DNA from: an uncultured bacterium
Lineage (GTDB): Bacteria; Patescibacteriota; JACMRA01
Length of the DNA: 64,000 bases
Reading direction: 5' to 3'
Assembly: GCA_963704645.1 (NCBI GenBank)
Contig: OY969926.1
Coordinates: 896,001 to 960,000, forward strand
Below, piece after piece: positions 2,376-18,745 of this stretch. The notes under the pieces are model-generated. The model was given only the letters and a program-made list of their open reading frames with translations. It was not told where the DNA came from and ran no database searches. Numbering within the stretch: the first letter of the stretch is position 1; each line of letters opens with the position of its first letter. Position numbers and translations under genes: made by a program.

Positions 2376-2383
2376 AAAGTTTT

Positions 2384-2614: not shown

Positions 2615-2893
2615 ATGCAAAAAACTACAATTAAAGCTGCGGGTAGGTGGCAAGTTACCCTTCCAAAAAATACTGCTTTAGATAACCGTATTAATAGCCT
2701 TTTAAAAAGATATGAAGGCATGAACTTAACCGAAATTACTAAACTTGCCCTTATTGAACTAGATAAAAAAGAAGCTGAAGAAAATTATCCAATAGATAAA
2801 GTTTTAGATGACTATTACGCTGGAAAACTTAAAACAACCAAAGTTAATTCTAGCAAAGAGCTTGAAGCATTATTAGCTAAAATGGCTGAATAA
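2615..2893 (+). CDS. Putative type II antitoxin
   Basis: Small ORF directly upstream of a RelE-like toxin; C-terminal 'NSSKELEALL' is typical of such antitoxins. Confidence 0.6.
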   Translation: MQKTTIKAAGRWQVTLPKNTALDNRINSLLKRYEGMNLTEITKLALIELDKKEAEENYPIDKVLDDYYAGKLKTTKVNSSKELEALLAKMAE

Positions 2894-2895
2894 TT

Positions 2896-3138
2896 ATGTA
2901 TAGTATAGAATTTTTAAATGATTTCTGGAAAGTATACAATAAACTTGCAAAAGGAAACTCTGTTCTGCAAAAAAAGTTTTTTAATTGTTTAGATAAAATG
3001 GCAGTCGATCCGTTTTATAGTTCTTTAAAAACCCATAAAGTAGATAGTAAAAAATACAAAAATGTATATTCAAGCTGGGTAAGTAGCTATGTTAGAATAA
3101 AATATGGTTTATGGGAAGAAGATTGGCTGAAGTGTTAA
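2896..3138 (+). CDS. RelE/YafQ-superfamily toxin, possibly C-terminally altered
   Basis: F.K.Y.KL...DPFYSSLKTHKV...YSSWV. Confidence 0.7.
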   Translation: MYSIEFLNDFWKVYNKLAKGNSVLQKKFFNCLDKMAVDPFYSSLKTHKVDSKKYKNVYSSWVSSYVRIKYGLWEEDWLKC

Positions 3139-3141
3139 AAT

Positions 3142-3558
3142 CTACCGCACCAAACCTGGTTTCTTTTCAGCTTCCAATAAAACTTTTTTCAACACATCCA
3201 AATTTACACCTTCCAAGCTTTTAATATTTATACAACTTTTGCCAACCTTCACCTTTCCAAGTTCTTTAGCGTGCATTTCGGCAGTATATTCACCATTATT
3301 TAAAGCACAAACATATAAGCTAATATAGTTTTTCTGATTGGCAAGTGAAATTACAGGCCAAGAAAGAACTTGTTTTTTGGAATTAGTATAAGGAAAAGAC
3401 CCATAACCAATCATATTAATGGCAAAATGTGGCTGTAGAGTAGGTACAGTTTGAATTATGAAATTGTGCAAAAATTCAAAATCCGCCTTGCGTTCAGTAG
3501 GCACACCGGCGATGTAATCTGGGATGTTTGTGGCTTTGGAGGGTTTGAACATGTTCAT
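3142..3558 (-). CDS. DUF1801 (YdhG-like) protein
   Basis: MIGYG.F.Y, WPVISLANQKNYISLY, LGKVKVGKSCI. Confidence 0.85.
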   Translation of the reverse strand: MNMFKPSKATNIPDYIAGVPTERKADFEFLHNFIIQTVPTLQPHFAINMIGYGSFPYTNSKKQVLSWPVISLANQKNYISLYVCALNNGEYTAEMHAKELGKVKVGKSCINIKSLEGVNLDVLKKVLLEAEKKPGLVR

Positions 3559-3570
3559 AGCGAAGAAGGG

Positions 3571-4119
3571 TTACTCAAAATTTAAACAAAACAATTCGAG
3601 TAAAATTTTGAATTCTGTGTTTGCAAATAAATGCTTATTTGAATTTATCAACTTCTTTGAAAGTTTTTCATCATAGAAATCTTCGAGAGGAGTGTTATTA
3701 AGTAATTTTTTGAATTTTTCTTTCAGCCTACCACAGTTTTTTCTTTCAAATCCAGATGTATCACCGAAAAATAAGGCCAAATTGATAGCCTCAATGCAAG
3801 GTTCATTTATTACCAGGATTAATTCATGATTTAGACCTTTTTTCTTTTCATTTACAATTTTATCGAAGTCTTCTCTTCTAGCTATCTTGTCACCATCAAG
3901 AACACAATATCGAACATCAAAATCGCCATCTTCACTCAGACAATTATTTAAAATAACTTCAGGCGTAGAACCATTCCCCTGTCTTATGCTAAAACTAGTT
4001 TGATAAACTCTCTGGATCGTTTTTAACAAAACACTCTCACATTTACCCTCAGTAAAAATAAGTATTCGTGGTTTAAATTCAACTCTATGTTCGATTCTAT
4101 ATTCGTGGCTTGGCTCCAT
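3571..4119 (-). CDS. RloB-like (TOPRIM-fold) protein; start uncertain
   Basis: IFTEGKCE, CVLDGD and NEPCIE motifs; overlaps the 3' end of the AAA ATPase. Confidence 0.75.
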   Translation of the reverse strand: MEPSHEYRIEHRVEFKPRILIFTEGKCESVLLKTIQRVYQTSFSIRQGNGSTPEVILNNCLSEDGDFDVRYCVLDGDKIARREDFDKIVNEKKKGLNHELILVINEPCIEAINLALFFGDTSGFERKNCGRLKEKFKKLLNNTPLEDFYDEKLSKKLINSNKHLFANTEFKILLELFCLNFE

Positions 4120-5278
4120 ATGCACCTGCAATATATTTATTATAAAAATTATCATCAGTACGAACCCCCTCAATATCGTTTAGTTTAAAAACTTCTGTTG
4201 ATCCATTAATAATGTTTTTCTCAGCAAAAAATATTTGATTTTTATCTAACTTCTTCATGATTGCTAATGAATGTGAACTAAAAATTAATTGACTTTCTAC
4301 TTCAGAATCAATAAACATATCTATAATTTCTCTTAGAATATCAGGATGTAAAAAAGCCTCTAATTCGTCCATAATTAACGGTGATTTGCTTTTTATTGAA
4401 GCCAATATATACCTCATGACTAAAAGAAGTCTTTTTGTTCCGTTGGAAGAGTAGTTAATATCATTACTGTATATTTTGTCACCAAAATTATGATTTTCAA
4501 CAACATCCTGTATAGTAACACTGTTATCCTGTTCTTCAGTTTTAAATTTAATACTATCAAATCCTAAATCAAACCTTCTCAGCATTTTCTCAACATTTAC
4601 TTTCTCATCAGGAAAAATATGAAAAGAAGCTAAGCTTTCCATAATTTCTAAAGGATTATTACCGCCATAGCCTGTTTCTTGGATATTGGTATTTAAATTA
4701 TTCCAATAATTAAAGATCTCAATTGATTTAGAGTCATTAAACTGCCTACCAATAGCAAGCAAAGAGACGTTTGTTCGATCTAATACTTCAGGCTTGTACG
4801 AAGTAAAACTAAGGTTTGAATCTTTATAAATATATTTTCCTTTATTATAATCCAAGTTCCTACTAAAAATAATTTTTGTTGTCCTTCTTTCATTTACTAG
4901 ACTTTTAGATAATAATTCTTCGCTTATAATTTTTTTCCGTGTAAGCTCAACTTTGTAAGTATACAGCGTTTCCTTAATTGCAAAAGCTACTTCAAAAATT
5001 GTATTTTCATTATTTTCAAAAAAATTTTTAAACGGTAGTAAAGCATCAGGTTCAATATCAAAAGATTTACATATTAGCCATTTAATAAATGCAAAAGACT
5101 TGAGGAAGTTAGTCTTCCCAGATGCATTTGAACCCACAAACATATTTACTTTGGAAATTTTCTCCTGTGCAGACTCAAGATAACTGTTGTTGTAAGGCTC
5201 AGAACGGTCAGATATAAAGCTAACTGCCTGCTCATCTCTTATTGAATAAAAATTTTTAACTTTTAAATAATGAATCAT
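4097..5278 (-). CDS. AAA_21/RloA-like ABC-type ATPase
   Basis: NFYSI, Walker A GSNASGKTN, SNGTKR, Walker B LIMDELEAFLHP, QLIFSSH, C-terminal Y..G.YGA.P. Confidence 0.9.
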   Translation of the reverse strand: MIHYLKVKNFYSIRDEQAVSFISDRSEPYNNSYLESAQEKISKVNMFVGSNASGKTNFLKSFAFIKWLICKSFDIEPDALLPFKNFFENNENTIFEVAFAIKETLYTYKVELTRKKIISEELLSKSLVNERRTTKIIFSRNLDYNKGKYIYKDSNLSFTSYKPEVLDRTNVSLLAIGRQFNDSKSIEIFNYWNNLNTNIQETGYGGNNPLEIMESLASFHIFPDEKVNVEKMLRRFDLGFDSIKFKTEEQDNSVTIQDVVENHNFGDKIYSNDINYSSNGTKRLLLVMRYILASIKSKSPLIMDELEAFLHPDILREIIDMFIDSEVESQLIFSSHSLAIMKKLDKNQIFFAEKNIINGSTEVFKLNDIEGVRTDDNFYNKYIAGAYGAKPRI

Positions 5279-5414
5279 AAATTAATAATAACATTTTTTT
5301 AAAATAAGGTCAATATTTTACAAATGATTGGTTTATTTTACTTTTAAATCTAAAAGAATTATGATTTAAGTTTAATCAACCCTCTTGCATTGCACTTCAT
5401 TTAATGATCATATT

Positions 5415-6095
5415 TTATGACATCATCCCTACATTTTTCATACTAGTATAACCATTTATAGAAACCACAATATGATCTGCAACTGTAATTCCTAAAATCC
5501 TCCCAGCTTCAACAAGCCTTCTTGTGGTTAAAATATCATCATTTGAAGGTGTATGATCCCCTGATGGGTGGTTGTGTGCAACTATTATATGCGAAGAATT
5601 ATACAGAATTGCCTTTTGGAAAACCTCTCTGGGGTGAACTAAACTGGCATTTAGTGTACCAACTGATATTTCATCAACAATAAGTTTATTTTTGGTGTCC
5701 AAATACAGAATTACAAAATTTTCTTTTTTTGAGTTACCAATCTTTGCTTTTAAATAGGCATATACTGCTTCTGGTGAATCTAATAGTGTACTATCTTTGA
5801 TTGCTTCTTTGTTGTATCTAATTAATAATTCATGAAAAAGAATAATAGCAAAAGCATTTGAAGGGCCTATTCCATCCACTTGTTGTAGCTCTTCATTTGA
5901 GGCGCTCAAAACATTTGTTAAGCCTTCAAACTTTGAAATTGCAGCTTTTGCAATTTGTTTGCAATCTTTTCTTGGTGTACCTAAAATTAAAAGTAGTTCA
6001 ACAATTTCATAATCTAAAAAACCTTCTAATCCAGATTGTAAAAGTCTGTCTTTAAGTCTTTGTCTATGTCCTATATTTTTGTTTAATTCATCCAT
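5415..6095 (-). CDS. radC: RadC (HhH + JAB domain) protein
   Basis: GHRQRLK, VHPREVF, AHNHPSGD.TPS..D, DHIVV. Confidence 0.93.
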   Translation of the reverse strand: MDELNKNIGHRQRLKDRLLQSGLEGFLDYEIVELLLILGTPRKDCKQIAKAAISKFEGLTNVLSASNEELQQVDGIGPSNAFAIILFHELLIRYNKEAIKDSTLLDSPEAVYAYLKAKIGNSKKENFVILYLDTKNKLIVDEISVGTLNASLVHPREVFQKAILYNSSHIIVAHNHPSGDHTPSNDDILTTRRLVEAGRILGITVADHIVVSINGYTSMKNVGMMS

Positions 6096-6096
6096 A

Positions 6097-8007
6097 TTAG
6101 TTAATTATGGAAATACCATCTGGTATATCTGAATAATTGCTAACAACTTTTGAGTTATTTTTCAAGTTATTTTTGAAATACTCCCTTGTTTCCTCATCAG
6201 TACAATAAATATAGCAACCCTTCATTCCTCTTGTCATTAAAGTTCTATAGGTATTTTTAATAATCATATCTGCCGTTTCTTTGGCTATTTCTGGGTTTTC
6301 TTTAAGCATCTTTTTATAACCAAAAATAGATTTATCCGTGCTTGCTCGTTTTGAAGCATCAGTAAGTATTTTACCATTTCTAACCATTAAATCTGGCCCA
6401 ATGATAACACCTGCATAATCTAGCTCTAAACCTTGGCAAGTGTGAATGCAACCAACTTCATTAACTGAATTTTTATGTACAATCCAAGCTTGTCCGTGCT
6501 CATTTAAATTCCATTTTGCAGAATAATCATCTATAATAATATCTTTTAATTCTGGTTGGGTTTTGCTAACCCATTTCCAACAATAGCCAGCCAAAATTCT
6601 AGATTTATTATTAAATTCATTTTTTTGAATAATTTTTTCATGAACTGATGAAGGGTTATCAATTACTTGGAAATCATAGTTTACTTCTTCAAGTGTATTA
6701 TTTGCTGTTGGCCTTATTTGTAAAACGTTATCAATCCAAGCTAAATAACCATCTGAACCATTACACCTAAACTGTGAAGCTAACTCAAGGGTATGTACTT
6801 TTGCACCTAAAATTTTTGCCCAACTTACAATTTCAGACTTTTGACCAATATCATTTAGCGTAACCCTTTGATCTTCATCTACGAAGAAAATGCTTAATTT
6901 AGCCGATTTAATAAGCTCCTTCACTTGATTCTCTCCAAGATGATTAAAAAGGCCAGATTTGGCATTTAGCCTGTGTGCTTCATCAACAATTAATGAATCA
7001 AAAGTATTTGGCTCTAAACTATGAAATGATCCAGAAGAACTAAATAAATTCTGAATTCTTGTTTTGGTAAATTTACCAGTTAATTTTACTTGATAAACCT
7101 CCCTAGGTGCTGAATTTTTTGTAACATACTGAGTCGCATCTCCTCTTTTTGTTAATTCTGTAAGTAAATTTATTGCTACAACAGATTTACCTGTTCCGGG
7201 CCCACCTTCAACAATTAAAACATTTTTATTATCTTCAGTTGATTCTTTTGCTAGTTTTAAAGCAGTTTCATAAACCAGTTTTTGCTCATCAATAAGAGTA
7301 AATTCAGCATTGCCATCTAACATTGAAGCAAGGTTGTCTGCCAAGGCTTTAGATGGTCGAATTTTGCCATGTTCTATTAAATAAATTGCATCGCCATTAT
7401 CTCCTTTTTTTACAAACTTCTTTATAAAATCTCTAAGCTTGATTGCGTCAGGCTTTAAAAAAATTGGGGCTCTATCCAGGTACTCTTTATAAAACTTGTT
7501 TGTTATTACTTCATCTGGTTCATAATTATGTAAATATGCACAAGGTGAAAGTAAAATTTCTTCTGTTTGTACATTACTATTATAATCTTCAATAAGACTT
7601 GCGTAAGACCAAACCTGATAAGATGGGTGGCAAACTTCACGAACATTTCCACCAACAAAGGTTTTAACCATGCCGTCTAAATCTGTTATATCCGCTGTCT
7701 CCCACTGTTTTAATTCTACTAATACAACTGACTTTTGCTTATTCTCATTTGTACCTGTTATTATAAAGTCTATCCTTTTGGAGTTTTGAGGAACCTTATA
7801 TTCAATTGCAATCCCTGCATTATCAGGAATTTGAGAATCGGAAATAATCTTGTCCATGTACATCATTGAGTTTTTCCACGAAGCAATCTCTGCCCTTCCA
7901 GTTGCATAACCCATTTCACGAACAAAAGAAGTTAAAATTTCCGTCTCAATTCTATTATTCAGCACATCTTCCATGAATAACTTTTTTGTAGATGAATAAA
8001 TAATCAT
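6097..8007 (-). CDS. DUF2075-family nuclease-helicase (N-terminal PD-(D/E)xK-like domain + SF1-like helicase)
   Basis: EY..P...RIDFII...VELKQW; GGPGTGKS; VDEAHRL; QFRC.G; HTCQGLELDY; YRTLMTRG. Confidence 0.88.
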   Translation of the reverse strand: MIIYSSTKKLFMEDVLNNRIETEILTSFVREMGYATGRAEIASWKNSMMYMDKIISDSQIPDNAGIAIEYKVPQNSKRIDFIITGTNENKQKSVVLVELKQWETADITDLDGMVKTFVGGNVREVCHPSYQVWSYASLIEDYNSNVQTEEILLSPCAYLHNYEPDEVITNKFYKEYLDRAPIFLKPDAIKLRDFIKKFVKKGDNGDAIYLIEHGKIRPSKALADNLASMLDGNAEFTLIDEQKLVYETALKLAKESTEDNKNVLIVEGGPGTGKSVVAINLLTELTKRGDATQYVTKNSAPREVYQVKLTGKFTKTRIQNLFSSSGSFHSLEPNTFDSLIVDEAHRLNAKSGLFNHLGENQVKELIKSAKLSIFFVDEDQRVTLNDIGQKSEIVSWAKILGAKVHTLELASQFRCNGSDGYLAWIDNVLQIRPTANNTLEEVNYDFQVIDNPSSVHEKIIQKNEFNNKSRILAGYCWKWVSKTQPELKDIIIDDYSAKWNLNEHGQAWIVHKNSVNEVGCIHTCQGLELDYAGVIIGPDLMVRNGKILTDASKRASTDKSIFGYKKMLKENPEIAKETADMIIKNTYRTLMTRGMKGCYIYCTDEETREYFKNNLKNNSKVVSNYSDIPDGISIIN

Positions 8008-8009
8008 AT

Positions 8010-8390
8010 TTAATTTAGTTCTGTATATTTTTTTGAAGAACCTACAGTCTTTTCAACTGGATATTTAACTGAATTTTTTTCAATTTTATTTTTAGCAATA
8101 TCAAGTAAATTAACATTTAGAACATCCGCTAAATTGATTAAATAAATCAAAATATCTGCCATCTCTTCCTTTATTCCTGTTATTTTGTCAGTTTTTATTA
8201 AATTTTCAACGTCTTGAGATTTCACCCATTGAAAACACTCCATCAATTCTGCAGCTTCAATTGATATTGAAATTGCTAAATCTTTTGGATTATGAAATTG
8301 TTTCCAATCTCGATCATCACGAAATTTGATGATTTTTTTAACTAATTCGTCATAAGAACTAGCATTAGTATTATTTGAATTTATAGACAT
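8010..8390 (-). CDS. MazG-like nucleotide pyrophosphohydrolase
   Basis: FRDDRDWKQFHNPKDLA.SI..EAAEL.E.FQW, EEMAD, KYP. Confidence 0.92.
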   Translation of the reverse strand: MSINSNNTNASSYDELVKKIIKFRDDRDWKQFHNPKDLAISISIEAAELMECFQWVKSQDVENLIKTDKITGIKEEMADILIYLINLADVLNVNLLDIAKNKIEKNSVKYPVEKTVGSSKKYTELN

Positions 8391-8396
8391 TTAGAG

Positions 8397-8489
8397 CAAC
8401 TAAATTAATACCCTAAAATTACACTTAAACCCTTCCTTTTGGCAAATATGGGTAGTACAAGCTTTGGTCTGAAAATAAACGGTTAAAAG
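8397..8489. repeat. ~93-bp direct repeat copy 1, containing a minus-strand TTGCCA promoter
   Basis: caactaaattaataccctaaaattacacttaaaccct-ccttttggcaaatatgggtag... matches 10126-10218. Confidence 0.9.
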
Positions 8490-8513
8490 ATCTAAACTCT
8501 ATAATACTTAATT

Positions 8514-8954
8514 CTAGCTTTCTTTGCTTAAGGCTTTAAATAATTTAAACAGCCACTCATCGTCAGTATCAGTTTCAGTTATAATTCTTAAAATGAACTC
8601 TTGTAAAAGCTCTTTGTCTATTTTATTTTCAGCCACTTCTACTACAATATTTTCCATTTCAATAAGAAACTTTTCTGCTAGGTTTTTACTAAAATTTAAA
8701 CTAATAAAGTAGGTTCCAAGGGCTAAAGCTGTTCTTTTGTTGCCATCATTAAAACAGTGAAATTTAACCAGTGCAAAAAATAAATGGGTAATTTTATCTA
8801 AAAAATTGGGATAATATATATCGTTTTGGATATGCGTTAAAATGCTTTCTATTTGCCCCAAATCTTTCACACCTTTTAGTCCAGACTCTTTTTCTAAAAT
8901 TCTTGTATGAACAAAAATGGCTTTTTCCAAACTAATATAAACAATTCTTTCCAT
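8514..8954 (-). CDS. Doc/Fic-family toxin
   Basis: HCFNDGNKRTA (Doc-type Fic motif). Confidence 0.9.
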   Translation of the reverse strand: MERIVYISLEKAIFVHTRILEKESGLKGVKDLGQIESILTHIQNDIYYPNFLDKITHLFFALVKFHCFNDGNKRTALALGTYFISLNFSKNLAEKFLIEMENIVVEVAENKIDKELLQEFILRIITETDTDDEWLFKLFKALSKES

Positions 8955-8956
8955 AT

Positions 8957-10069
8957 TTATCTATCTTTTAGTCTTTTAAAAATATCTTCGTGGTTATCTA
9001 TTAGCTTAATAAATTCTTCAGTTTTTTGCTCTATTTGTTCACTTTCTTCAGACAAAAACTTTTGATATTCTTCTTCAGACAGTGATGACAAATATGGCTC
9101 TAGGGCTTCGTGTAAAATATCTCTAAAAGCTTTATCACGGCTGGCCATTAACATTCTTGCGGTGTCTTTAATTGGTTTTAAAAAGGGAGAATTGAAACAA
9201 AATTTAAAAACTTCCTCGGCCTCGTCTTGTAATAAAGGTCTTTTCTGGTCTTCATATTTTTGCTTTAAAGCTTCAGTTATGCCATTTTCATAACCGGAAA
9301 CTACATCTAATATCTCTCTGTAAAGTGTGTGCCTAAGGTTATCTCTTGCCCCTAATTTAAGCAGTTGTCTATATTCTCTGGCGTTTTCACCGAATAAGTC
9401 TTTATATATTAAATCTGTAAAATATGGATACTTAAAATTTCCCAGCTCTGGTGAAAGATAGTCTTTTAAACCATCTGTAAAAGCTTTTCTATAGTCTTTG
9501 TTTTGCAAATAGCTTTGTGTAAAAGTTTCGTCTCGCTGATTAATATATTTGGTTTTACCACCTGTTTTAGATCTCATCACATCTACTACAATATCTAATA
9601 TCTTAGATCTTAATTCTTGTGCTACTAAACTATTTTTAAGAAGCATTCCAACGTTTAGAAAAGCTCTAAAATCAAAAACACCCAAGACAGTAGTTTTGGT
9701 ACCTGCAGGTTTGCGGTTCACATCTGGGTTTGTGTCTATTTCATCAGCTTTTGACGTAAAATTAGAATTATCACTTTTGGTACCGACATTGTTGTCGCTC
9801 ACATACTTATTTTTGGCTATTTTAAGGCGTTTTCCCGTAAGAATTTCGTAGCCATTTTTTCGTAGTTCTTGCTCGTTTTCTTCTATCATCCTTTCCAAAG
9901 TTCTCTCATCAACTTGATAAAAATCTGCTACATCTTGTTTTAGAATATAAATTTTACCTTCCATTTCAAAATAAGGAAAATTTTTCACTTCTTCCTGAAT
10001 TTTAGACAAAGCAAAGGGGTTATTTAGTATATTTTGCCGGTCAATGTTAGATTGTGTTATATCTGGCAT
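8957..10069 (-). CDS. DNA-binding protein of the type found with Doc/Fic toxins
   Basis: DRQNILNN, VADFYQVDERT.ER, FLNVGMLL..S..A..LR, YINQRD, MASRD. Confidence 0.75.
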   Translation of the reverse strand: MPDITQSNIDRQNILNNPFALSKIQEEVKNFPYFEMEGKIYILKQDVADFYQVDERTLERMIEENEQELRKNGYEILTGKRLKIAKNKYVSDNNVGTKSDNSNFTSKADEIDTNPDVNRKPAGTKTTVLGVFDFRAFLNVGMLLKNSLVAQELRSKILDIVVDVMRSKTGGKTKYINQRDETFTQSYLQNKDYRKAFTDGLKDYLSPELGNFKYPYFTDLIYKDLFGENAREYRQLLKLGARDNLRHTLYREILDVVSGYENGITEALKQKYEDQKRPLLQDEAEEVFKFCFNSPFLKPIKDTARMLMASRDKAFRDILHEALEPYLSSLSEEEYQKFLSEESEQIEQKTEEFIKLIDNHEDIFKRLKDR

Positions 10070-10125
10070 AGCTTGAAGGTTTTATTTTGTTTATAGCTTA
10101 ATCTTTCATTATATATAGAAATGTA

Positions 10126-10218
10126 CAACTAAATTAATACCCTAAAATTACACTTAAACCCTACCTTTTGGCAAATATGGGTAGCCAAAGCTTCAGTCTG
10201 AAAATATATGCTTAAAAA
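10126..10218. repeat. ~93-bp direct repeat copy 2
   Basis: Matches 8397-8489; the first ~59 bp differ at one base. Confidence 0.9.
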
Positions 10219-10317
10219 GGTTAGAGTAGGGCAGTGTAACTTTCATTGCCAAACCCTAAAAACTGTGCTTTTCTATAAGTATTGTTTCAATTTTGAACAA
10301 TTTAAGGAGTAAAAGTA

Positions 10318-10569
10318 ATGGATCCCAGATTTGAAAAGTATAGAAATGAAACTTATTTTCTAGCTGTAGTTTGCGGCGTAACAATAACCTTAACAAAAAA
10401 TGAGGTAAGACCCATTGCCAAGAAAATTACAGGACTTTCTGACAAGCCCTTCTTTCCAGAGACCATTGTGGATATCGCTCCAACTGACGTTGCTTACGGT
10501 GGTTTAATAGTTTTAGTTTCAACGCTAGTCTTTGCTTTCGGTGTGCTAACTTTTGGAAAGAGGGGGTGA
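10318..10569 (+). CDS. Small 2-TM membrane protein, paralog of 12906..13142 (cassette 1)
   Basis: TLT....RPI.K.ITGLSDK....V.IAPTD.AY shared; AAGGAG SD. Confidence 0.8.
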   Translation: MDPRFEKYRNETYFLAVVCGVTITLTKNEVRPIAKKITGLSDKPFFPETIVDIAPTDVAYGGLIVLVSTLVFAFGVLTFGKRG

Positions 10570-10595
10570 GTTTTTTTGTTCAGTACAAATATTTA

Positions 10596-10623
10596 AATAG
10601 CTTGAGTGACACAGGCTATTTTT
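10596..10623 (+). terminator. Cassette terminator AATAGCTTGA..CACAGGCTATTTTT
   Basis: Recurs at 11970-11995 and 12763-12790. Confidence 0.75.
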
Positions 10624-10656
10624 CTTTGCTCTAAAATCTCTCATTTCTTGGGCTAA

Positions 10657-11626
10657 TTAAGTAAAAAACCTATCAAAGGCCAAATCAATTTGCTTTCTAA
10701 ACTCTGGAAATTCGCTTTTCGACATTATTTGTATGGCAAACAACAGCTTAATTTCGTTTTCAAAGTTTTCATCCCAAAGTTCTGGATATTGGTTTATAAA
10801 CACATCAAAAACGTGTGGCATTTGTGTGGTATAAAACTTTTTAAGCTGTGCTGGAACAACGGCCGTGGGTAGGAAAGTAAATAAAAATACTGCAAGTAAT
10901 TCTCTAAATCTTGGGGCAAAGTGTGAATAATCAAAATCTATAAAAATTTAAGTTTAAGTTTTCATCAATCAAAATATTTTCTAGGTGAACATCGCAGTGA
11001 ATTAAAAATATTTCTTGGCTAATTAATTTTTCAGAGGTATTTTTTCTAATTTCTTGGAAGGTTTGTCTTATATTTTCAGGCAAATGTTTGCCGTCTTTAG
11101 CTATTGTTCTATCAAATTCATCTAAAATTCGCTTGGTGGAATATTCAAAGTTAAATATTGGCTGGTGAAAATCTTTTAATTTATCAATAACTTTTACAAT
11201 TGTTTTAATTTGGTCTTCGGAATTTAATTTGTAGAAAAAATCAACTAGCGGTTTAGACTTAGTGTAATACTCACTCACTACCACAGCAGTTCCTAATGCT
11301 TCATCATATTCAGTAAAAAACAGAATTCCTAAACTTGTTAACGAAATTTTAGATTCAGCTAAATCTGTATAATTTTGAATTAGTCTTTGCTTATAAACCC
11401 CCTCATTTCTTAGCTGGTTTTTATATTTAGGAACAAAAATTTTCACAATTATTTCTTGCCCAATAAGAACGGTTAGGGTGGTTTGTCCACCTTCCATAAT
11501 TTTAATTGGCTCATTAACTAATTTAGGGTAATTTTGTGAAATCCAATGCGGTAATACTTCCAGTTTCTCTAAAGAAATTTCCGATAAAGATAGTAAAAAC
11601 TGAGGATTAACAATATTTTTTAGCAT
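10657..11626 (-). pseudogene. APH/choline-kinase-like phosphotransferase, frameshifted
   Basis: HCDVHLENIL motif; the IDFD motif appears only after a 1-nt shift at the A5 run (~10942), and a second shift near 10760 restores a C-terminus ending at 10657. Confidence 0.7.
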
Positions 11627-11756
11627 ATTTTCTTATCATTTAAAAGCGGTATAAAGCCAAGCTTGTCAAAACGTTGTGGTAAAAGAAATTGGTGGGTTAC
11701 AATTGCCAAATGCCAAAAACTGTGCTTTTATGTAAGTAGAACTTTTGGATTAAATA

Positions 11757-11960
11757 ATGTTGTATAAAAACATTTACCGCTATGGTTTGGGTTTGACATC
11801 GATCATCGTAGTTTTACTGTTAGCTATTCTTTTCATCCCAGAGCTTGGAACTAAGACAAGTAAAGATCCTAAGAATGATAACATAATTTACATACTTATT
11901 TGGACTGGAAGTGCATCAGCCTTAGCCACATTTTGGGCAAGGGGGAAACTAGAAGGATGA
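11757..11960 (+). CDS. Small 2-TM membrane protein (cassette 2)
   Basis: Two hydrophobic segments; flanked by the conserved promoter (11703) and terminator (11970). Confidence 0.7.
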   Translation: MLYKNIYRYGLGLTSIIVVLLLAILFIPELGTKTSKDPKNDNIIYILIWTGSASALATFWARGKLEG

Positions 11961-12076
11961 CTTATAAAGAATAGCTTGAACCACAGGCTATTTTTCTATG
12001 GGAGTCTTAAATTGCCAAATGCCAAAAAGCATGCCTTAATTAGTTGTTATTCTATTTTAGAACAAACTGAGGAAAA

Positions 12077-12328
12077 ATGTCTCAAAAGAATACGGATTAT
12101 TTATTGCCAGCTATATATCTTCTAGTTGTGTGGATGTTTGTAAACTCCACTTGGAGGTTTTTTGGAGATCTAATTTCAAACATGTTTGGGTTATCCAACC
12201 AACCCAATTTTTACGAAGTAGGTAATATTTTTAGAATAATATTGCCATCGCAGGCTGCATTACCATATGTTTTTATGGTTGGAATGTTGTCCGGGTGGGT
12301 ATATTATAAATATATAGATAGAATTTAA
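12077..12328 (+). CDS. Small 2-TM membrane protein (cassette 3)
   Basis: Promoter at 12012, GAGG SD, hairpin at 12334-12356. Confidence 0.7.
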   Translation: MSQKNTDYLLPAIYLLVVWMFVNSTWRFFGDLISNMFGLSNQPNFYEVGNIFRIILPSQAALPYVFMVGMLSGWVYYKYIDRI

Positions 12329-12437
12329 TTTTAATTGCCCTGCAAGCCAGGGTGATATTTTTTTAGAAAAGGTTTGCTAAAATTATTAAACTGTGCCTAA
12401 ATAAGAAAGTTGCTGAAATTATAACAATGGAGATAAA

Positions 12438-12755
12438 ATGATTCTAATTCAATTTGTGGTAGGCATTCTGATATCAATATTTGCAGAATATCTTCTGAAG
12501 AATATTATAACTTCAACTAGCGAAACAACCTTTGTTTTATTGTTTGCCATTTTTTTTCTAGTAGGTTTGGCAGTTACTTTTATTTGTGTACCACGTAAAA
12601 TGCTGTTCAATTTTTTCGCATCAGCATTTCTAGGGTATGTTTTTAGTATCAGTTATTTTGCACTGATAGGCTCAGTGCTTACGCTAGATAAGACATTTCT
12701 TTTACTTTTTTACTTCGTAATTTTATATATATACGTGCTGGGCGTGACAGCCTAA
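12438..12755 (+). CDS. Small multi-TM membrane protein (cassette 4)
   Basis: Highly hydrophobic; GGAG SD; terminator at 12763. Confidence 0.7.
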   Translation: MILIQFVVGILISIFAEYLLKNIITSTSETTFVLLFAIFFLVGLAVTFICVPRKMLFNFFASAFLGYVFSISYFALIGSVLTLDKTFLLLFYFVILYIYVLGVTA

Positions 12756-12905
12756 TTTTAATAATAGCTTGAGTTACACAGGCTATTTTTCTTATTCTAA
12801 ATTTTTTGCACATTATTTTTTCTTGTTTTTAAAAATATTTGCCAAACATTAAAATATTTAGCTTCTTATTTACATAGTTCAATTTGAAACAATTTAGAGG
12901 AAATA

Positions 12906-13142
12906 ATGAATTTGAGACTAAGGAACTATGAAAAAAAAGTAAATTTAACAGCTCTGTTTTTCGGAGTCTTCGCCACTCTTACCAGGGAAGCAGCAAGACC
13001 AATTGTTAAAAGTATAACAGGTTTGTCTGATAAAATTTATGAAGGTTTGGTTGTTGAAATTGCGCCAACTGATATTGCGTATATTGGTGTAATTGCGCTT
13101 ATTGTTTGCAGTGCTTTATTTCTGCTCAACCAGCGCAAGTAG
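12906..13142 (+). CDS. Small 2-TM membrane protein, paralog of 10318..10569 (cassette 5)
   Basis: ITGLSDK...IAPTDIAY; GAGG SD; hairpin at 13185-13208. Confidence 0.8.
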   Translation: MNLRLRNYEKKVNLTALFFGVFATLTREAARPIVKSITGLSDKIYEGLVVEIAPTDIAYIGVIALIVCSALFLLNQRK

Positions 13143-13215
13143 TGAAGCTAAACTAATTCAATTTGTGTTGTAAATAATATTCTGCACCCTAAATAATAGG
13201 GTGTTTTTCTTTGCC

Positions 13216-14184
13216 CTAAAACCTTTTTGCCCAACCCTGCCTGTTTATTTTTATAAATCTTAAAATGTTAATAATTATAAGTAATTCTTTCACAATGTCT
13301 AAAATTTGCTTGTAGTCTGTGGCTTTTAAATAAATTTTAGGGTCGAACAAATTAACTGGTTCTGGTGAAATTTTGTTTGTGCTTACTGGTTTCCAGCTAA
13401 AAAATATTTTTCGATCATTCACTATTAAGGTAATTTTCTGGTTGAATCTTTGGTGCAAATCTAGCAAATAATCCATAACCGCAGGGTTTAAAATGAACCT
13501 GGCAAATACTTCATCGTTACTGTAAAAATCGTATATTTCAGCTAATCTTGGGCTTTCTAAGTTAATTTTTAGCAATTCAGGAAACTTTCTAAACTTGGTT
13601 TTTTCAACCACATGCAAAATTCCACCATAAGTAGAATAATTTAAGTCCATAAAACCCAATAAACCTTTAAATGTAGTTGTTTTTGTTAAATTAAAATTGG
13701 CATGTGTCGTATTTTCGCTTATAAAAATTTCAGACATTTCAAAAGGCATGCCATCAATATTTGTAATTACCAAGTCTTCCCCAGAAATAATTGTGTCTGG
13801 TGTATAGTTTAAATCTAAAATTCTAGAAGACAATATTGCATCTATTTCCAAGTGTCTTTCCGGGTAATAAGACATATTGGGGAAAATTGCCTGAAATAAT
13901 GGTTGAATAATTTCGTTTTTGTATCTTTTTTTGTATGGTTTTTGCCCAAGAAATACCATAGCCAAACTTCCAAAGATAAAATATGAACAAGCAAAAGCCA
14001 AATCAAAGTCACGCTCGAACGGAGCCACAAAAAGTAAAAGCAAAGTGAAAATTAAGGCTATTCCAGCTGCAATTCTAGTTGTACTCCAAATAATCTTTCT
14101 AAGCTTTTCAAGCTCAACTAATTTGTGTTCTAAGTTTTGTGCAACAAAGTCCTCCACCTGCTTAAAATATTCGTCCGAGTTCAT
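13216..14184 (-). CDS. DUF3137-like membrane-anchored protein
   Basis: Two N-terminal TMs, YK..YK.EII, GED, FKGL, LES..F/L...YS.D...AR.IL.P..M..L. Confidence 0.75.
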   Translation of the reverse strand: MNSDEYFKQVEDFVAQNLEHKLVELEKLRKIIWSTTRIAAGIALIFTLLLLFVAPFERDFDLAFACSYFIFGSLAMVFLGQKPYKKRYKNEIIQPLFQAIFPNMSYYPERHLEIDAILSSRILDLNYTPDTIISGEDLVITNIDGMPFEMSEIFISENTTHANFNLTKTTTFKGLLGFMDLNYSTYGGILHVVEKTKFRKFPELLKINLESPRLAEIYDFYSNDEVFARFILNPAVMDYLLDLHQRFNQKITLIVNDRKIFFSWKPVSTNKISPEPVNLFDPKIYLKATDYKQILDIVKELLIIINILRFIKINRQGWAKRF

Positions 14185-14192: not shown

Positions 14193-14222
14193 TTAAAACA
14201 AATGTTTTGGGTTTAGCCTAAT
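14193..14222 (-). repeat. Copy of the priA 3' end (IRLNPKHLF*)
   Basis: att agg cta aac cca aaa cat ttg ttt taa versus priA gtt agg cta aac cct aag cat ttg ttt tag. Confidence 0.88.
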
Positions 14223-14349
14223 TCGAAATATCTTTTAATAACCGAACAAGGTTTTTAAATCTTCATTTAAATTGCATAAAAAAAGAGCCTAAAAAATTCT
14301 AAACTCTAGTTTGTATTTTATTTGTTTCTACCGGCGTATTGTTGCCAAA

Positions 14350-14802
14350 TTAGTTTGAATAACCAATAGCTTCCGATAGATCAGCACCATTGAGATTTAC
14401 CCGATCAAGTATTGCACCAGTTAGATTAGCATCAGATAGATCAGCATCTGTTAAATCTGTGTTTTGCAAACATGCCCAACTTAATGTTGAATTAGTCATG
14501 ATTGCTCTACACAGAATAGCCCCTGATAGATCCGCATTATTCAGAACAAGAAAGGATTCTGAAGTAATATCAGAAAAGTTTGCTCCTGTTAAATTTCCAT
14601 ATTGCAGGTTTGTTCTAGTCAGAATAGCTCTAGAAAGATCAGCTCTATTCAAATTAGCTCCGCCTGATATGTCTGCCCTCGAGAGATCTGCTTCCGAAAG
14701 ATTCGCGCCTTCCAAATTTGCTTTAAACAACTTTGCATTTGTCAGATTCGTGCGTTGAAGATTCGCACCAGAAAAATTAACACCATTCAGAAAAGCTTCA
14801 GT
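14350..14802 (-). pseudogene. Pentapeptide-repeat protein, apparently 5'-truncated
   Basis: A(D/N)LxxA repeats run in frame up to the priA-tail copy at 14805 with no proper start; the track's TTG at 14730 is mid-repeat. Confidence 0.75.
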
Positions 14803-14804
14803 TT

Positions 14805-14833
14805 TTAAAACAAATGTTTGGGTTTAAGCTAAT
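14805..14833 (-). repeat. Second, decayed copy of the priA 3' end
   Basis: att agc tta aac cca aa- cat ttg ttt taa (1-nt deletion). Confidence 0.85.
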
Positions 14834-14935
14834 TTTGTTGATTCACATAAATAAATCTTAGGATGTTAAGAATTGTTCACAATTAATTTAATGGCTGGTT
14901 AATAAATTCAATCTAAGTTATAATTTGCTCATTCT

Positions 14936-15745
14936 ATGATAGAAGACTCGTATAACCAAAGAAGTGAATTTGAGCTGAGAAGCACTATAGAATACTTTGA
15001 AAACAGAAAAGAGCAAATAACCATGCAAGAACTTTCTGATTTTTTTGGAGTAATTTTAGTCCATTCGCTTCCCGATGACACCGAAGATCAGGTGCTAAAT
15101 GATAAAATTAAAGACTATACTAGCTATCAATTGTTAGAAATCGCTTTAGATAAATGTTTAAATAATCCAATTGAAAATTTGGCTTTCTGCTCTGTGCAAA
15201 GAGGTGATGATTACAACCGATGGTTTGGCAGATTTTTTGGTGTAGTTACCTTGAGCGGAAAAATTGTACAGACTTCTGTAAGCGACGCAAATTCTTGGCA
15301 TAAAGAGCATGGGCATTATGAAGAGACATCAACCAATAAAGACATTTTAGCCGCCATTAGACCAGGTAAAAGTTCCAAAAAAAATGAAATAAATATTAGA
15401 ACTGAGCCAAATCTTCTTCTACCTTTTTTAGACTTAGACCATGTTTTAGGAAGCCTAAAGTGGGGTGCTCAAACAAAAGAACGCCTTACAAATTTATCTG
15501 TAGTTGATCAATTCTTTAGGTTTAAAAAACTTATGGATGAACGGAATCTTCCTTATATTGGCTTATACAAAGGGAGTGTGGTTGAATTTGTACCTGAAGT
15601 AATGGCTGAAGAAATTAGTGGTTTTGAAGAAATAACTGAAGAAAATTATCAAAAATGGAGAAGCAATATGGCTATGCTAAAGGTTAAGATGAATTATTTA
15701 AAACCATTAACTTTTGACCAGCTCACTAACTTTACAAAGCTTTAG
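14936..15745 (+). CDS. Hypothetical protein
   Basis: 269-aa ORF between two priA tails, bracketed by ~22-bp imperfect inverted repeats. Confidence 0.75.
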   Translation: MIEDSYNQRSEFELRSTIEYFENRKEQITMQELSDFFGVILVHSLPDDTEDQVLNDKIKDYTSYQLLEIALDKCLNNPIENLAFCSVQRGDDYNRWFGRFFGVVTLSGKIVQTSVSDANSWHKEHGHYEETSTNKDILAAIRPGKSSKKNEINIRTEPNLLLPFLDLDHVLGSLKWGAQTKERLTNLSVVDQFFRFKKLMDERNLPYIGLYKGSVVEFVPEVMAEEISGFEEITEENYQKWRSNMAMLKVKMNYLKPLTFDQLTNFTKL

Positions 15746-15771
15746 CAAATTTTTTGTGTGAATCATTCAAG

Positions 15772-16935
15772 CTAAAACAAATGCTTAGGGTTTAGCCTAA
15801 CTTGCAGGCGTTTTTGTAAAGCTAAAGTTCCTATAGTTTGCCTTAGTGTACTAAATTTAGTGTATCCTTTAGGGTATCTTATCAATATATGGAAGGAATA
15901 CATGTTTTTTCGTCTTAAAAAACGTGCAGGGTAGGGTGAACCTACTTCAATTTCTGGCATTTCTGCTTTAACTGTGAAAATATAGTTTTTCAAATCTTGC
16001 AGAACGTTTAAGGCCACACTTTTGTCTTTTTCTTGGGAAGTAATTAGTAGAAGATTATAAAATGGAGGAAACTTAAATTTTTCACGCAAACGTTTTTCTT
16101 CTTCCAAAAAAGTATTGTACCAATTTAAAATGGTTTGATATTGCGGGTGAATTCTGTTCAACCTTAAAACTTCTTTAAAAAAACTATTCTCTGGGTTGGT
16201 TGTATCAAAATATATATGACAAGCTGGGTTTACCTGGTTTAAAACCTCGGCCAACTGCTTGTGCACGTCTTCTTGAACCAGATAATCTGGGCTGGCTAAC
16301 AAATTATCGGCTTGAACAAAAACAATTTTATTGAAAATAGAATAATTAATTTGTGGGTCATAAACCCTTACACTTACAGCATTTTGGCCATCTACAAGGG
16401 CTTCTAAAGTATCACTTAAAATGTTAGATTTTCTTTTATTTTCGCTAATTTGTATTATAAAACTGTCTTGTTTCTGTAAAAATTCTATATTTTCCTCATC
16501 AATTACACCATTAGGCATTGCTGAAAGTAGTGTTTCAAAATTTGCCCCCTCATCTGATTTTTCATCTTTTGGAAGATTATCGATCGTATTCTTGTCTTTT
16601 CTTTTGGAAACTTTTTCTGTTTTTAACCAATCTGGAGTAGGGGACTTTCCTGCAAAATTATATGTTTTAGTTTCGCTTAAATTGTCTAAAACGTTAATAA
16701 GCTCATCAATTCCGGCAAAAATAGAAGAAAAGTTTTGGCCATGACAACTTGGACACTTGTTTGGATAGTTATAAAAAGTTTGGCATTGGTGACAAACCAA
16801 CTCTAATTTATAAGGCGAAGTTCTATAAGTTACTAAATTAGCATCACAATTTTGACATTGAAAATTATGCCCACAATCTTGGCAACGTGTTAACTGAAAA
16901 AGCCCTCTTCGGGGGTGAATGTATAAGGTTGGCAT
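15772..16935 (-). CDS. priA: Primosomal protein N' (PriA), C-terminal half
   Basis: RRG..C..C...C..C...C..C...C..C Cys-rich region; R...KFPPF; C-terminal RLNP. Confidence 0.85.
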   Translation of the reverse strand: MPTLYIHPRRGLFQLTRCQDCGHNFQCQNCDANLVTYRTSPYKLELVCHQCQTFYNYPNKCPSCHGQNFSSIFAGIDELINVLDNLSETKTYNFAGKSPTPDWLKTEKVSKRKDKNTIDNLPKDEKSDEGANFETLLSAMPNGVIDEENIEFLQKQDSFIIQISENKRKSNILSDTLEALVDGQNAVSVRVYDPQINYSIFNKIVFVQADNLLASPDYLVQEDVHKQLAEVLNQVNPACHIYFDTTNPENSFFKEVLRLNRIHPQYQTILNWYNTFLEEEKRLREKFKFPPFYNLLLITSQEKDKSVALNVLQDLKNYIFTVKAEMPEIEVGSPYPARFLRRKNMYSFHILIRYPKGYTKFSTLRQTIGTLALQKRLQVRLNPKHLF

Positions 16936-17148: not shown

Positions 17149-17544
17149 TTGGAAAAAATTGAAGTTGGAGCTGATGGTATTATTGCATATTTGTTGAAGA
17201 GCAGGAAAGCAGGGAAATATATATTTTTTAACAATACTCCAGTGTCGGTATTTATTTCTAGGTGGGAAGACAACGAAGGCCAAGTTTTAAAAGATATTGA
17301 AATTTTACCTCGTGAATTTGGCTTAGAACCAATTGATTTCACTTCAGAAAATGAAATTTCTTCTCTATTTGATAACTCGACATTAAATATTTATATACTA
17401 CAACTATTTGTAGTGGTCGATGATCCATCTTGTAATAAACTAGTAAAAAAGTTTTACCGTTCTTGTCAGTTTGGTGACGTTCTAGTAAGTTATTTCTCAC
17501 CTATAGACTTCTACGAACATTTTCAATTTAATGATGATCTGTAA
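17149..17544 (+). CDS. Hypothetical ORFan cassette between the two priA halves
   Basis: 131-aa ORF, TTGACT upstream, hairpin ctctcaa...ttgagag + T-run downstream. Confidence 0.6.
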   Translation: MEKIEVGADGIIAYLLKSRKAGKYIFFNNTPVSVFISRWEDNEGQVLKDIEILPREFGLEPIDFTSENEISSLFDNSTLNIYILQLFVVVDDPSCNKLVKKFYRSCQFGDVLVSYFSPIDFYEHFQFNDDL

Positions 17545-17692: not shown

Positions 17693-18745
17693 TTAATGGT
17701 TTGTTGTAGAAGACTTTGCCAAATCTGAAAACCTAACTGAGGGGAAATTACTTTGATAATATAAATCCGAACCAAATTGCGAAGCTAAAATATAAGAAGT
17801 TTCACGTACATCAAAATATAATCCACCTTGTTCTTGAATATGCATTGAATTACTTTCGTCTATAACAAAAATTGCTGAAATTTGGTTATAAGGTAAAAAT
17901 AATCCAGCTCTGGTTGTAAAATATACATTTTTCTTTATATTTTTTGAATCTGGAAGCAAAAGGCTTTTTATTGTAGCTTTAGAGGCTTTATCTTTCCCAG
18001 AGGTAAAACTATATAGATGAACATCTGAAAACTCCTTTAAATTGATTTGTGAAAGCCATTTTTTTAAAAGTTTAATTTCTGGAAAGATAATTAGGGTATT
18101 TTTATACTGTACGTTTCGTATAAGGTACATTATACGTAGTATACTTTCTATATCCCCGTTTTTATCTTTATCTGTAATATTTTCATTATTAAAGTGTAAA
18201 TATTCAGTTTTACCAATTTTAATGGAATCAGGTTTTTGTGAAACTCCAAAATTATTATTTGGGCTGGAATTTTCATTTTTTGCTAAAATTTTATTATTGT
18301 AATTTTCTGTGATAATTTTCCAATCGGCTTTTATTAACAAATTAAAACTTTCAAGGCCGGCAGATAAAACTCTGTTCATGCTACTGAAATTGTTAAAAGC
18401 AACACTTTGCCAAAAATTCATTAAGTTGGATGAAAAAATGTATGGTAAAATATTTTCAATTGGTTTAACTTCGTATTTAGACTTCGCTATTTCCTCTGAA
18501 GGCAACGTTTGGGCAGATTCAACTTCTTTAGGGAAATTACCAATCAACTCTGAAGTTTCATCGTTATCTACAATTTTAGTCGTTTCCTTGCTCTCCACCC
18601 TACTCTGTTTGAAAATAACCCCTTTTTCTAAAGTATTTCTTATAGAGACTTCAACTAGCTGGCCAATTGCTAAATCTTCCTGTGAAGAATAGGTTAAAAA
18701 GCTGATAGGTAAAAGCTTTTCGGTTAAAACAGCATAATGATACAT
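17693..18745 (-). CDS. priA: PriA N-terminal half (3'-DNA-binding domain + degenerate helicase lobe 1)
   Basis: LTY...LAIGQLVEV..R....GVI; IIFPEI; TRAGLFLP...IFVIDESN...QEQ..Y..RE; no GSGKT. Confidence 0.75.
   Translation of the reverse strand: MYHYAVLTEKLLPISFLTYSSQEDLAIGQLVEVSIRNTLEKGVIFKQSRVESKETTKIVDNDETSELIGNFPKEVESAQTLPSEEIAKSKYEVKPIENILPYIFSSNLMNFWQSVAFNNFSSMNRVLSAGLESFNLLIKADWKIITENYNNKILAKNENSSPNNNFGVSQKPDSIKIGKTEYLHFNNENITDKDKNGDIESILRIMYLIRNVQYKNTLIIFPEIKLLKKWLSQINLKEFSDVHLYSFTSGKDKASKATIKSLLLPDSKNIKKNVYFTTRAGLFLPYNQISAIFVIDESNSMHIQEQGGLYFDVRETSYILASQFGSDLYYQSNFPSVRFSDLAKSSTTNH

Follow-up and report, generated by a model that had tools for sequence, protein, structure and literature searches.

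The window analysed here, 64 kb of DNA comprising bases 896,001–960,000 of a single-contig genome (G000; 1,272,640 bp, 33% GC), belongs to a small genome of the Patescibacteria type obtained as a metagenome-type assembly. Within this window, the 3′ end of the C-terminal open reading frame (ORF) of priA is present three times in the same orientation, once as the live end of the gene and twice as displaced copies downstream of it. The copies are very probably the scars of insertions that supplied the gene with a surrogate tail, whatever enzyme was responsible. As to the process, the preferred reading, to which we give a probability of roughly 0.45, is a tail displacement guided by homology, carried out by the recombination machinery of the cell after DNA uptake rather than by a dedicated integrase. 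The same kind of scar is found behind two further genes of this genome, one uvrC-like and one rsmE-like.

Three co-oriented copies of the priA 3′ end

The priA C-terminal ORF (15772–16935, minus strand; 387 aa) features a zinc-finger region and a PriA_C domain (Pfam PF18074, E = 6e-9), and homologues of it are present in 23 of 24 family genomes. Its last nine codons and stop (GTT AGG CTA AAC CCT AAG CAT TTG TTT TAG, encoding VRLNPKHLF) occupy positions 15772–15801 and constitute the live tail, denoted c3. The two displaced tails, which lie on the minus strand as well, are an internal copy of 29 nt, c2 (14805–14833), and an outermost copy, c1 (14193–14222). An earlier reading of this sequence, referred to here as the original prediction, had proposed three tail copies; all of them are present at these positions, and c3 is indeed the real end of the PriA_C ORF.

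When the 64-kb window was searched with a degenerate 21-mer, allowing at most 3 mismatches, the three tail sites were the sole matches; 0.15 would be expected, and not one of 100 shuffled sequences yielded three. In a blastn-short search of the whole genome, c1 aligned with c3 over 28 nt (92.9% identity, E = 4.7e-5) and with c2 over 23 nt (95.7%, E = 0.046); every other match was 19 nt or shorter, and no fourth copy was detected in the 1,272,640 bp. Occurrence of the tail at many sites unrelated to priA, which would have spoken against the original prediction, was looked for by both searches, and the tail was found only at c1, c2 and c3.

Over 28 nt the identity is 93% between c1 and c3 and 79% between c1 and c2. 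The differences had been described as mostly synonymous or conservative, and this is accurate for c1 and c3, which differ by three synonymous changes (CCT/CCA, AAG/AAA and TAG/TAA) and one exchange between valine and isoleucine. It does not hold for c2, a decayed copy that carries an Arg to Ser change and a frame-breaking deletion of 1 nt.

The left 14 nt of c3 (GTTAGGCTAAACC) are the same as in relatives, while its right part differs from c1 at CCT, AAG and TAG. Conversely, c1 deviates at its left end (A for G, followed by unrelated DNA), and its right end equals that of G001, a genome of the same genus. This arrangement, in which c3 resembles the relatives on the left and c1 on the right, is what would remain if the resident tail had undergone a single reciprocal crossover with a tail-like site on incoming DNA. 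The motif TAAACCC is common to c1, c2 and c3, and c1 and c2 start at the identical nucleotide, at a boundary between A and TTAG. With only three sites, the shared boundary and the shared motif could reflect either a fixed crossover position within a common core or the inheritance of one original boundary.

The outermost copy and the ancestral junction

The conserved downstream neighbour of priA in the genus is a DUF3137 gene, located in the window at 13216–14184 on the minus strand (Pfam PF11335, E = 5.8e-16). The outermost tail, c1, ends 8 nt before the ATG of this gene (14184). In G001, whose DUF3137 protein is 65% identical to that of the window, the priA stop is followed by 7 nt and then by the DUF3137 ATG. 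The identical 7-nt junction, which represents an empty site, is seen in L053–L055, three metagenome contigs from another species of the genus with 68% PriA-C identity. The spacing of c1 from DUF3137, together with these junctions, shows that c1 is the ancestral junction, and the original prediction, which had regarded the outermost copy in this way, is borne out by the relatives. The tail of G001 is matched at 28 of 30 positions by c1 and at 26 of 30 by c3; upstream of c1 the priA homology stops (19 of 60 positions, compared with 50 of 60 upstream of c3). c1 is thus the ancestral priA end: an insertion of 1,579 bp separated this old tail from the rest of priA, and the live gene, which is intact, now ends in a tail that arrived with the insert.

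The priA–DUF3137 interval differs among close lineages. A comparison across relatives had been suggested along with the original prediction, and such variation is found: the junction is direct in G001 and L053–L055, and in L052, the closest relative found (a metagenome locus with 82% PriA-C identity), two DUF1801 genes directly follow priA, the contig stopping 1.3 kb further on.

The priA loci of 20 family relatives were also compared, and the 2.9–6.1 kb downstream of priA were searched for extra tails. No second copy was found in any of the 20, either at the nucleotide level with up to 6 errors or at the peptide level. The C-terminal peptide Q[VI]RLNP[KR]HLF followed by the stop, or a close variant of it, is present in all 20 relatives, and the synonymous sites of the tail vary freely among them. 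A conserved peptide with free synonymous sites indicates that a protein end is conserved here and not a DNA site.

Displaced tails behind uvrC-like and rsmE-like genes

A genome-wide search for downstream copies of gene tails, as had been proposed with the original prediction, was carried out in two scans. In the first, the terminal 30 nt of every ORF served as the query and as many as 5 mismatches were tolerated; the second compared the last 75 nt plus 50 nt of the 832 ORFs of at least 150 aa with the whole genome. The list from the second scan was filtered by reading, and tandem paralogues (recognised by reciprocal upstream and downstream matches) and matches confined to the 50 nt past the stop were dropped. 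Three loci with displaced tails were left, priA-C and two more, at the uvrC-like and the rsmE-like gene.

The uvrC-like gene (1104251–1105270, minus strand), which encodes a UvrC RNase H domain, is accompanied by one displaced tail in a locus that spans 1102419–1105270. Its last 65–69 nt are repeated 1,832 nt downstream with 89% identity, and the repeat encodes the same 18 residues. Beyond the stop codon, roughly another 40 nt are similar, interrupted by a 10-nt indel. The two copies enclose three genes on the opposite strand, one for a GNAT acetyltransferase and two of unknown function. As judged by reading the three sequences, the left part of the live tail and the right part of the dead copy resemble G001, much as at priA. 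Some 2.4 kb beyond this locus there is an ISXO2-like transposase ORF, which was named from its translation with no family search.

The rsmE-like methyltransferase gene (811408–812178, minus strand; locus 809292–812178) has three dead tail copies. Each of these comprises at least about 105 nt of coding tail and the terminator hairpin, and they are spaced by about 590–610 nt. Behind each copy, the distal one included, there is a small opposite-strand gene with a conserved promoter-like motif (TTTGCAAA...TGTGATTAT). The four small opposite-strand genes of the locus, all of which have the motif, encode 112, 128, 125 and 103 aa, and a Pfam search gave no match for any of them. Orthology with G001, both in the tail of the gene and in the flank leading into a recF-like gene, is seen for the distal copy and the sequence next to it. 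Of all the tails the live one has diverged most, and a nonsense change as well as missense changes are present in copies 1 and 2; in the encoded peptide only the last 4–5 residues differ among the tails. Among the 25 of 26 family genomes with a match, extra rsmE-like tail fragments were found only in G000, by a whole-genome protein search that would be less sensitive to the diverged copies of the relatives themselves.

The original prediction held that the copies look like former functional tails of other alleles. When the live tails are compared with the ancestral-type tails and the three loci are pooled, 16 of 22 differences fall at third codon positions (binomial P = 1.8e-4). A dead copy that drifts after a local duplication would lack such a bias, which is to be expected if each tail evolved as a genuine gene end in a lineage of its own. 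The proposal is thereby supported by the pooled data; priA alone, with 3 of 4 differences at third positions, would not show the bias.

The repeats of the three loci are unrelated in sequence and in length, measuring about 30 nt at priA, about 110 nt at the uvrC-like gene and about 165 nt at the rsmE-like gene. At the latter two they run through the terminator, resembling a block of inter-strain homology. The units at the three loci are 0.6–1.8 kb in size.

The inserted units at priA and their cargo

The insert at priA is divided by c2 into two units, and the original prediction of one accessory gene per interval agrees with what they contain. Unit 2 (14834–15771; 938 nt), the interval between c3 and c2, holds one gene, orf269, and terminal inverted repeats. 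Unit 1 (14223–14804; 582 nt), the interval between c2 and c1, consists of a pentapeptide-repeat ORF and 127 nt. The GC content of the two units is 0.325 and 0.357, compared with 0.334 for the genome.

The gene orf269 (14936–15745, plus strand) is on the opposite strand to priA and convergent with it, and it belongs to a rare family of unassigned function. No Pfam or PHROG match was obtained, and no match was found in viral contigs, plasmids or phages. The family counts eight proteins among 5.8 billion, the one of the window included; the homologue P0002 is 78% identical. Of 23 other genomes of the family, 2 have the gene, as do 0 of 377 from other families of the phylum. A confident AlphaFold (AF2) model of the protein has a predicted local distance difference test (pLDDT) score of 82.4, and comparison of this model with the PDB gave no match at E ≤ 0.001. 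The genome-like GC content of the units and the restriction of orf269 relatives to this bacterial family suggest that the donors were kin.

One of the family genomes, G014, carries, in the region L059, 2038–4766, an orf269 homologue with 52% identity about 1.9 kb from a tRNA-Gln gene, with two small helix-turn-helix ORFs between them. One of the two is excisionase-like, a label taken from reading the sequence, with no family search. A repeat of the tRNA-Gln end was not found in the 8.8 kb around this homologue, and the inverted-repeat motif of unit 2 is absent there.

The inverted repeat of unit 2 was noticed post hoc. Its left arm (14839–14854) is situated 5 nt from c2 and its right arm (15750–15765) 6 nt from c3. 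The 16-nt arms are complementary at 14 positions (88%), and in 20,000 random pairs of genome windows such a match between terminal 30-nt windows is reached with a frequency of 0.0002. The best terminal inverted repeats of unit 1 (9 of 16) and of the uvrC-like insert (8 of 16) are both at chance level.

The pentapeptide-repeat ORF of unit 1 (14350–14823, minus strand; Pfam PF00805, E = 1.3e-39) has been described in the original prediction as cut exactly at a tail. In favour of this, the frame is open from 14823, inside c2, and the repeats begin at once, at residue 5 of the translation from 14802. The first ATG, GTG or TTG codon is a TTG at 14730, 24 codons further in. The ORF is thus probably 5′-truncated at c2, and a cut at the tail is plausible. 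The searches gave no close homologue and only generic, repeat-level matches; most of these distant homologues are longer, at 200–263 aa.

Recombinases and DNA uptake genes

No recombinase is encoded in the units or elsewhere in the 64-kb window, and none is found beside any of the three loci. The genome has a sole tyrosine recombinase (PF00589; 381 aa, 883.3–884.5 kb), which is located among housekeeping genes about 26 kb from the priA locus. It scores best against Xer models, yet falls under all their cut-offs; with the integron-integrase model TIGR02249 it reaches 111 bits against a cut-off of 265, and its scores with the Xer models are higher. The remark in the original prediction that there is no integrase nearby is therefore correct, the nearest candidate being this Xer-like gene outside the window. 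A sole large serine recombinase (PF00239; 528 aa, 73645–75231) is encoded 836 kb away, adjoining genes for a type IV secretion system (T4SS) pilin and a lytic transglycosylase, and this neighbourhood may be the remnant of a conjugative element. Across 25 family genomes no tyrosine recombinase was found next to priA-C, and most of them carry only the Xer-like one.

A search for donors or attP sites was made in metagenomes, and the scan returned four loci. The tail pattern had 0 matches in viral contigs, and in genome contigs it was found only at the priA ends of two relatives.

The proteins ComEC, RecA and DprA are encoded in the genome. Natural competence has been shown experimentally for Saccharibacteria, members of the same phylum (PMC10633639, in the portion of the paper available to us).

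The proposed tail displacement and its alternatives

In the ancestral state, priA ended at c1, directly before DUF3137. Incoming DNA from related bacteria would have carried a surrogate for the last ~10 priA codons beside a cargo gene, and one reciprocal crossover with the resident tail, most simply a Campbell-type insertion of a circular molecule, would have joined the two. priA would then end, intact, in the surrogate tail, and the old tail would be pushed downstream as a dead fragment. With two units acquired in this manner (orf269 and the pentapeptide fragment), both would lie between c3 and c1, and c2 would be the hybrid site between them. We infer the circular intermediate, the single reciprocal crossover, the occurrence of two separate events instead of a joint transfer of both units, and the guidance by homology from the final structure; this structure is the same whichever unit came first, and the order of events is not readable from it. 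Homology is favoured over a dedicated enzyme because the scar recurs at two other housekeeping genes with unrelated repeats of very unequal length, and because none of the three loci has a recombinase.

A number of observations weigh against homology guidance. The priA repeat is only 28–30 nt long with a longest identical run of 13–15 nt, which is very short for recombination of the RecA type. The identical start of c1 and c2 and the 14-of-16 inverted repeat of unit 2 fit a site-specific enzyme better. The stacking of priA tails is known from one genome, and 0 of the 20 relatives show any. At the rsmE-like gene, the live tail is 67–71% identical to the copies along the whole length (first 100 columns), which is not what a crossover inside the repeat would give. 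Units 1 and 2 of the same array are paralogous (33% amino acid identity, with a shared junction and promoter-like motif), and since they are paralogues, part of this array is probably a local tandem duplication and not a capture. Lastly, the mapping of imported tracts in priA-C and in the uvrC-like and rsmE-like genes against G001 failed, as third positions are near saturation; their identity between G000 and G001 is mostly 40–65% per 20-codon window, too diverged for tracts to be mapped.

The strongest alternative, which we regard as a serious possibility though not as probable, is site-specific integration followed by accretion. The units would be remnants or cis-mobilizable passengers whose attP site mimics the priA 3′ end, and the integrase would have been lost or would act in trans, either encoded by a phage or a plasmid or being the resident serine recombinase itself; c3 would correspond to attL, c2 to a hybrid att site and c1 to attR. 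Direct repeats of the target 3′ end do bound each unit, priA is kept intact and the site is empty in relatives, all of which is in keeping with this scheme. The common left boundary of c1 and c2 and the TAAACCC motif of all three copies could mark the core of such a site, and in a circular form of unit 2 the inverted repeats would flank the tail and be roughly centred on the inferred crossover region. Candidate components can also be named: the orf269 homologue of G014 is found near tRNA-Gln and the small ORF read as excisionase-like, and the large serine recombinase at 73.6–75.2 kb is accompanied by the T4SS pilin and lytic transglycosylase genes. A precedent exists in the tandem ssrA islands of Dehalococcoides, which have 20-bp repeats and whose integration modules are sometimes missing (PMC3146451, as outlined there). 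On the other hand, neither the units nor the window encodes an integrase, none is found close to priA-C across 25 family genomes, and units of 0.58 and 0.94 kb are tiny. For three unrelated repeats, about 30, 110 and 165 nt long, three specificities would be required, whereas the genome has two recombinases. Unlike a core site, the repeats of the uvrC-like and rsmE-like genes pass the stop and continue through the terminator. The tail pattern, moreover, is without a match in viral contigs and without an extra copy in the genome.

Homology-facilitated illegitimate recombination (HFIR) during transformation is a rather improbable account. Linear DNA from a diverged relative would be anchored in priA by homology, its foreign 3′ part would be joined illegitimately to the displaced resident strand, some tens of bases ahead of where the homology ends, and the resident tail would be left as a short duplicate. 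HFIR usually yields deletions or simple insertions rather than duplications. Two independent illegitimate joints at one nucleotide, as c1 and c2 would require, are unlikely, and a crossover within the repeat would account better for the reciprocal left/right pattern at priA and at the uvrC-like gene. HFIR would however dispense with an integrase, and the genome does encode ComEC, DprA and RecA. It would also explain that the dead copies always span the end of the homology with varying lengths (28–30 nt; ~65 nt plus ~40 nt past the stop; ~105 nt plus terminator), and that at the rsmE-like gene the live tail is foreign-like throughout and the dead copies are resident-like. As a process, HFIR is established (PMC3240628).

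It is highly unlikely that no biological insertion took place and that the copies reflect chance similarity, an assembly mis-join of strain variants or a local tandem duplication. The genome has a GC content of 33% and comes from a metagenome-type assembly, and c2 taken alone is weak (E = 0.046 genome-wide). But shuffled sequences never gave three matches, the copies are co-oriented, and the distal copy reproduces the junction of four independent assemblies. Identical runs of 13–15 nt at priA, and of 11 nt at the uvrC-like gene, are too short for a mis-join at the k-mer sizes in general use. A local duplication can point to the paralogous units of the rsmE-like array; at priA, orf269 shows no relationship to the pentapeptide ORF, nor does either of them to adjacent genes, which argues that the priA stack is not a tandem duplication.

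Least probable of all is that the tails are dif-like sites for the chromosomal Xer recombinase and the units integrase-less passengers, as in integrative mobile elements exploiting Xer (IMEX): stacked integrase-less units are typical of IMEX arrays, the priA locus falls on the GC-skew terminus plateau and the single Xer-like recombinase is ~26 kb away, but the dif-like site of the family is CGTATAA-N6-TTATACG, 2.3 kb away in the priA N-terminal ORF, the tail is without such arms and showed no comparable arm symmetry on inspection, its freedom to vary at synonymous sites leaves no conserved DNA site, and the uvrC-like and rsmE-like loci are 190 and 100 kb from the terminus. An involvement of Xer was set aside, as the dif-like palindrome of the family does not resemble the tails.

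Features of priA and of the surrounding region

The priA gene is split in this genome, as it is throughout the family. An N-terminal ORF (17693–18745, minus strand; 350 aa) and the 387-aa C-terminal ORF are in different frames and 757 nt apart, and the gap holds an opposite-strand ORF of 131 aa (17149–17544). C-terminal priA ORFs of 305–393 aa are found across the family, and an order-level relative has a single frame of 814 aa. In three genomes (G017, G014 and G006) the N-terminal part of priA is on a separate contig from the C-terminal ORF.

The cumulative GC skew has its maximum at 884–920 kb, a plateau that marks the terminus, and the priA locus (910–912 kb) falls inside it. The canonical dif pattern gave 0 strict matches. 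A looser pattern found the palindrome CGTATAA-N6-TTATACG at window positions 18117–18136 (914117–914136 in G000), inside the priA N-terminal ORF, where it codes for LRIMYLIR. Allowing one mismatch at most, 23 of 24 other genomes of the family have the palindrome, as does the order-level relative, and most genomes have a single copy; a reversed control pattern is rare. No variation is seen in the arms of the palindrome, not even at third codon positions or in two CGN arginine codons, while the central 6 nt vary. The ~97 nt around it are 88–92% identical in three relatives with PriA-C protein identity of only 68–82%. The palindrome lies inside the priA N-terminal ORF even in the three genomes that have this ORF on another contig. 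Several genomes have it on one contig with the Xer-like gene; in G000 the two are ~30 kb apart. Its conservation and the position of the GC-skew maximum make the palindrome a candidate chromosomal dif site that would be embedded in coding sequence.

In G002 (C21, 15288–16292), a second dif-like palindrome is situated 0.5 kb from a tyrosine recombinase frame of ~200 aa. Small extra tyrosine recombinases are seen in G002, G003, G012, G019 and G402, and these may belong to small elements with their own dif-like site.

Beyond DUF3137, a block of ~12 kb (400–13200) separates it from the guanylate kinase gene (2–376). G001 and L053/L055 lack the block and have a gap of 1.3–1.7 kb instead. It contains genes for NUDIX and DUF1801 proteins, RloB with an AAA_21 ATPase, RadC, a Schlafen-like helicase (DUF2075 type), Fic/DOC, an ORF6N-domain protein, an APH-like fragment and small membrane-like ORFs, and looks like a defence or accessory island.

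Implications and comparison with known systems

Little is known about how accessory genes are gained by the tiny, streamlined genomes of Patescibacteria, in which few integrated mobile elements have been described. It is conceivable, but in our view doubtful, that these bacteria gain single accessory genes by integrase-free single crossovers at short homologies, with DNA from kin that bears a few dozen terminal bases of a conserved housekeeping gene beside the cargo, and with any conserved gene end as a landing pad. If tail displacement is such a route, the piled-up old tails would be a readable record of successive captures. Guidance by homology would widen the idea of C-terminal displacement, developed for Rhs proteins, from polymorphic toxins to ordinary core genes, and would make downstream copies of gene tails a computable signature of recent gene gain in uncultured bacteria. 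A site-specific origin would imply an unseen helper element that targets the ends of protein genes. Either way, stacked tails keep ancestral alleles and could be used to rebuild the history of a locus.

The closest likeness is with the C-terminal displacement of Rhs genes, for which sequential single crossovers with a circular intermediate have been proposed, the old tip being shunted downstream without deletion (Jackson et al. 2009, PMC2935791, as far as the available text goes). There, too, an intact gene is followed by dissociated 3′ tips that keep a conserved coding fragment, the distal tip is ancestral and no integrase is involved (PMC2935791). The Rhs tips encode different toxin ends and come with partner genes, and each Rhs locus contains identical core fragments (PMC2935791). 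In contrast, the tails of priA and of the uvrC-like gene encode the same or nearly the same peptide, the genes are housekeeping genes and the cargo consists of unrelated small genes. The very high core identity of Rhs is not matched either: the tails are 79–93% identical at priA, 89% over 65 nt at the uvrC-like gene and 67–71% at the rsmE-like gene, and the priA repeat, at 28–30 nt, is far shorter.

It has been reported that the ssrA gene of Dehalococcoides harbours tandem islands bounded by ~20-bp repeats of the ssrA 3′ end, and that some of these are without integration genes, which were read as cis-mobilizable elements gathered by accretion (McMurdie et al. 2011, PMC3146451, in the parts accessible). 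Repeats of a target gene 3′ end that bound tandem accessory units in a small genome are common to both cases. The ssrA islands have an RNA gene as target, are kilobases long, and 16 of them carry a conserved integration module including the serine recombinase dsiB (PMC3146451), whereas the targets here are protein-coding, the units measure 0.6–1.8 kb and no recombinase is found at any of the three loci. Of the features that characterise att-bounded islands, the direct-repeat bounds and an intact target with an empty site in relatives are seen here; neither the array nor an adjacent element provides a cognate integrase.

Integrase-less units between short repeated sites near the terminus recall IMEX. 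These Xer/dif modules rely on the recombinase of the host; the repeat described here is not dif-like, and the uvrC-like and rsmE-like loci are remote from the terminus. Integron cassettes are likewise single-gene units separated by short recombination sites, but here there is no integron integrase and no attI or attC-type site, the separator is the end of a core gene and the orientation of the cargo is mixed. Duplications triggered by transformation measure 100–900 kb and occur between repeats resembling insertion sequences (PMC3784515, in the text at hand). The use of one homologous anchor for foreign DNA, and repeat-bounded duplications in naturally transformable bacteria, are shared with HFIR and with these duplications (PMC3784515, PMC3240628); short tail duplications around single captured genes are not described in the accessible portions of these two papers. 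The structure as a whole is of a known kind, namely displacement or accretion at the 3′ end of a gene. What is unusual here is that it comes without an integrase, with very small units, at three loci, and at protein-coding housekeeping genes.

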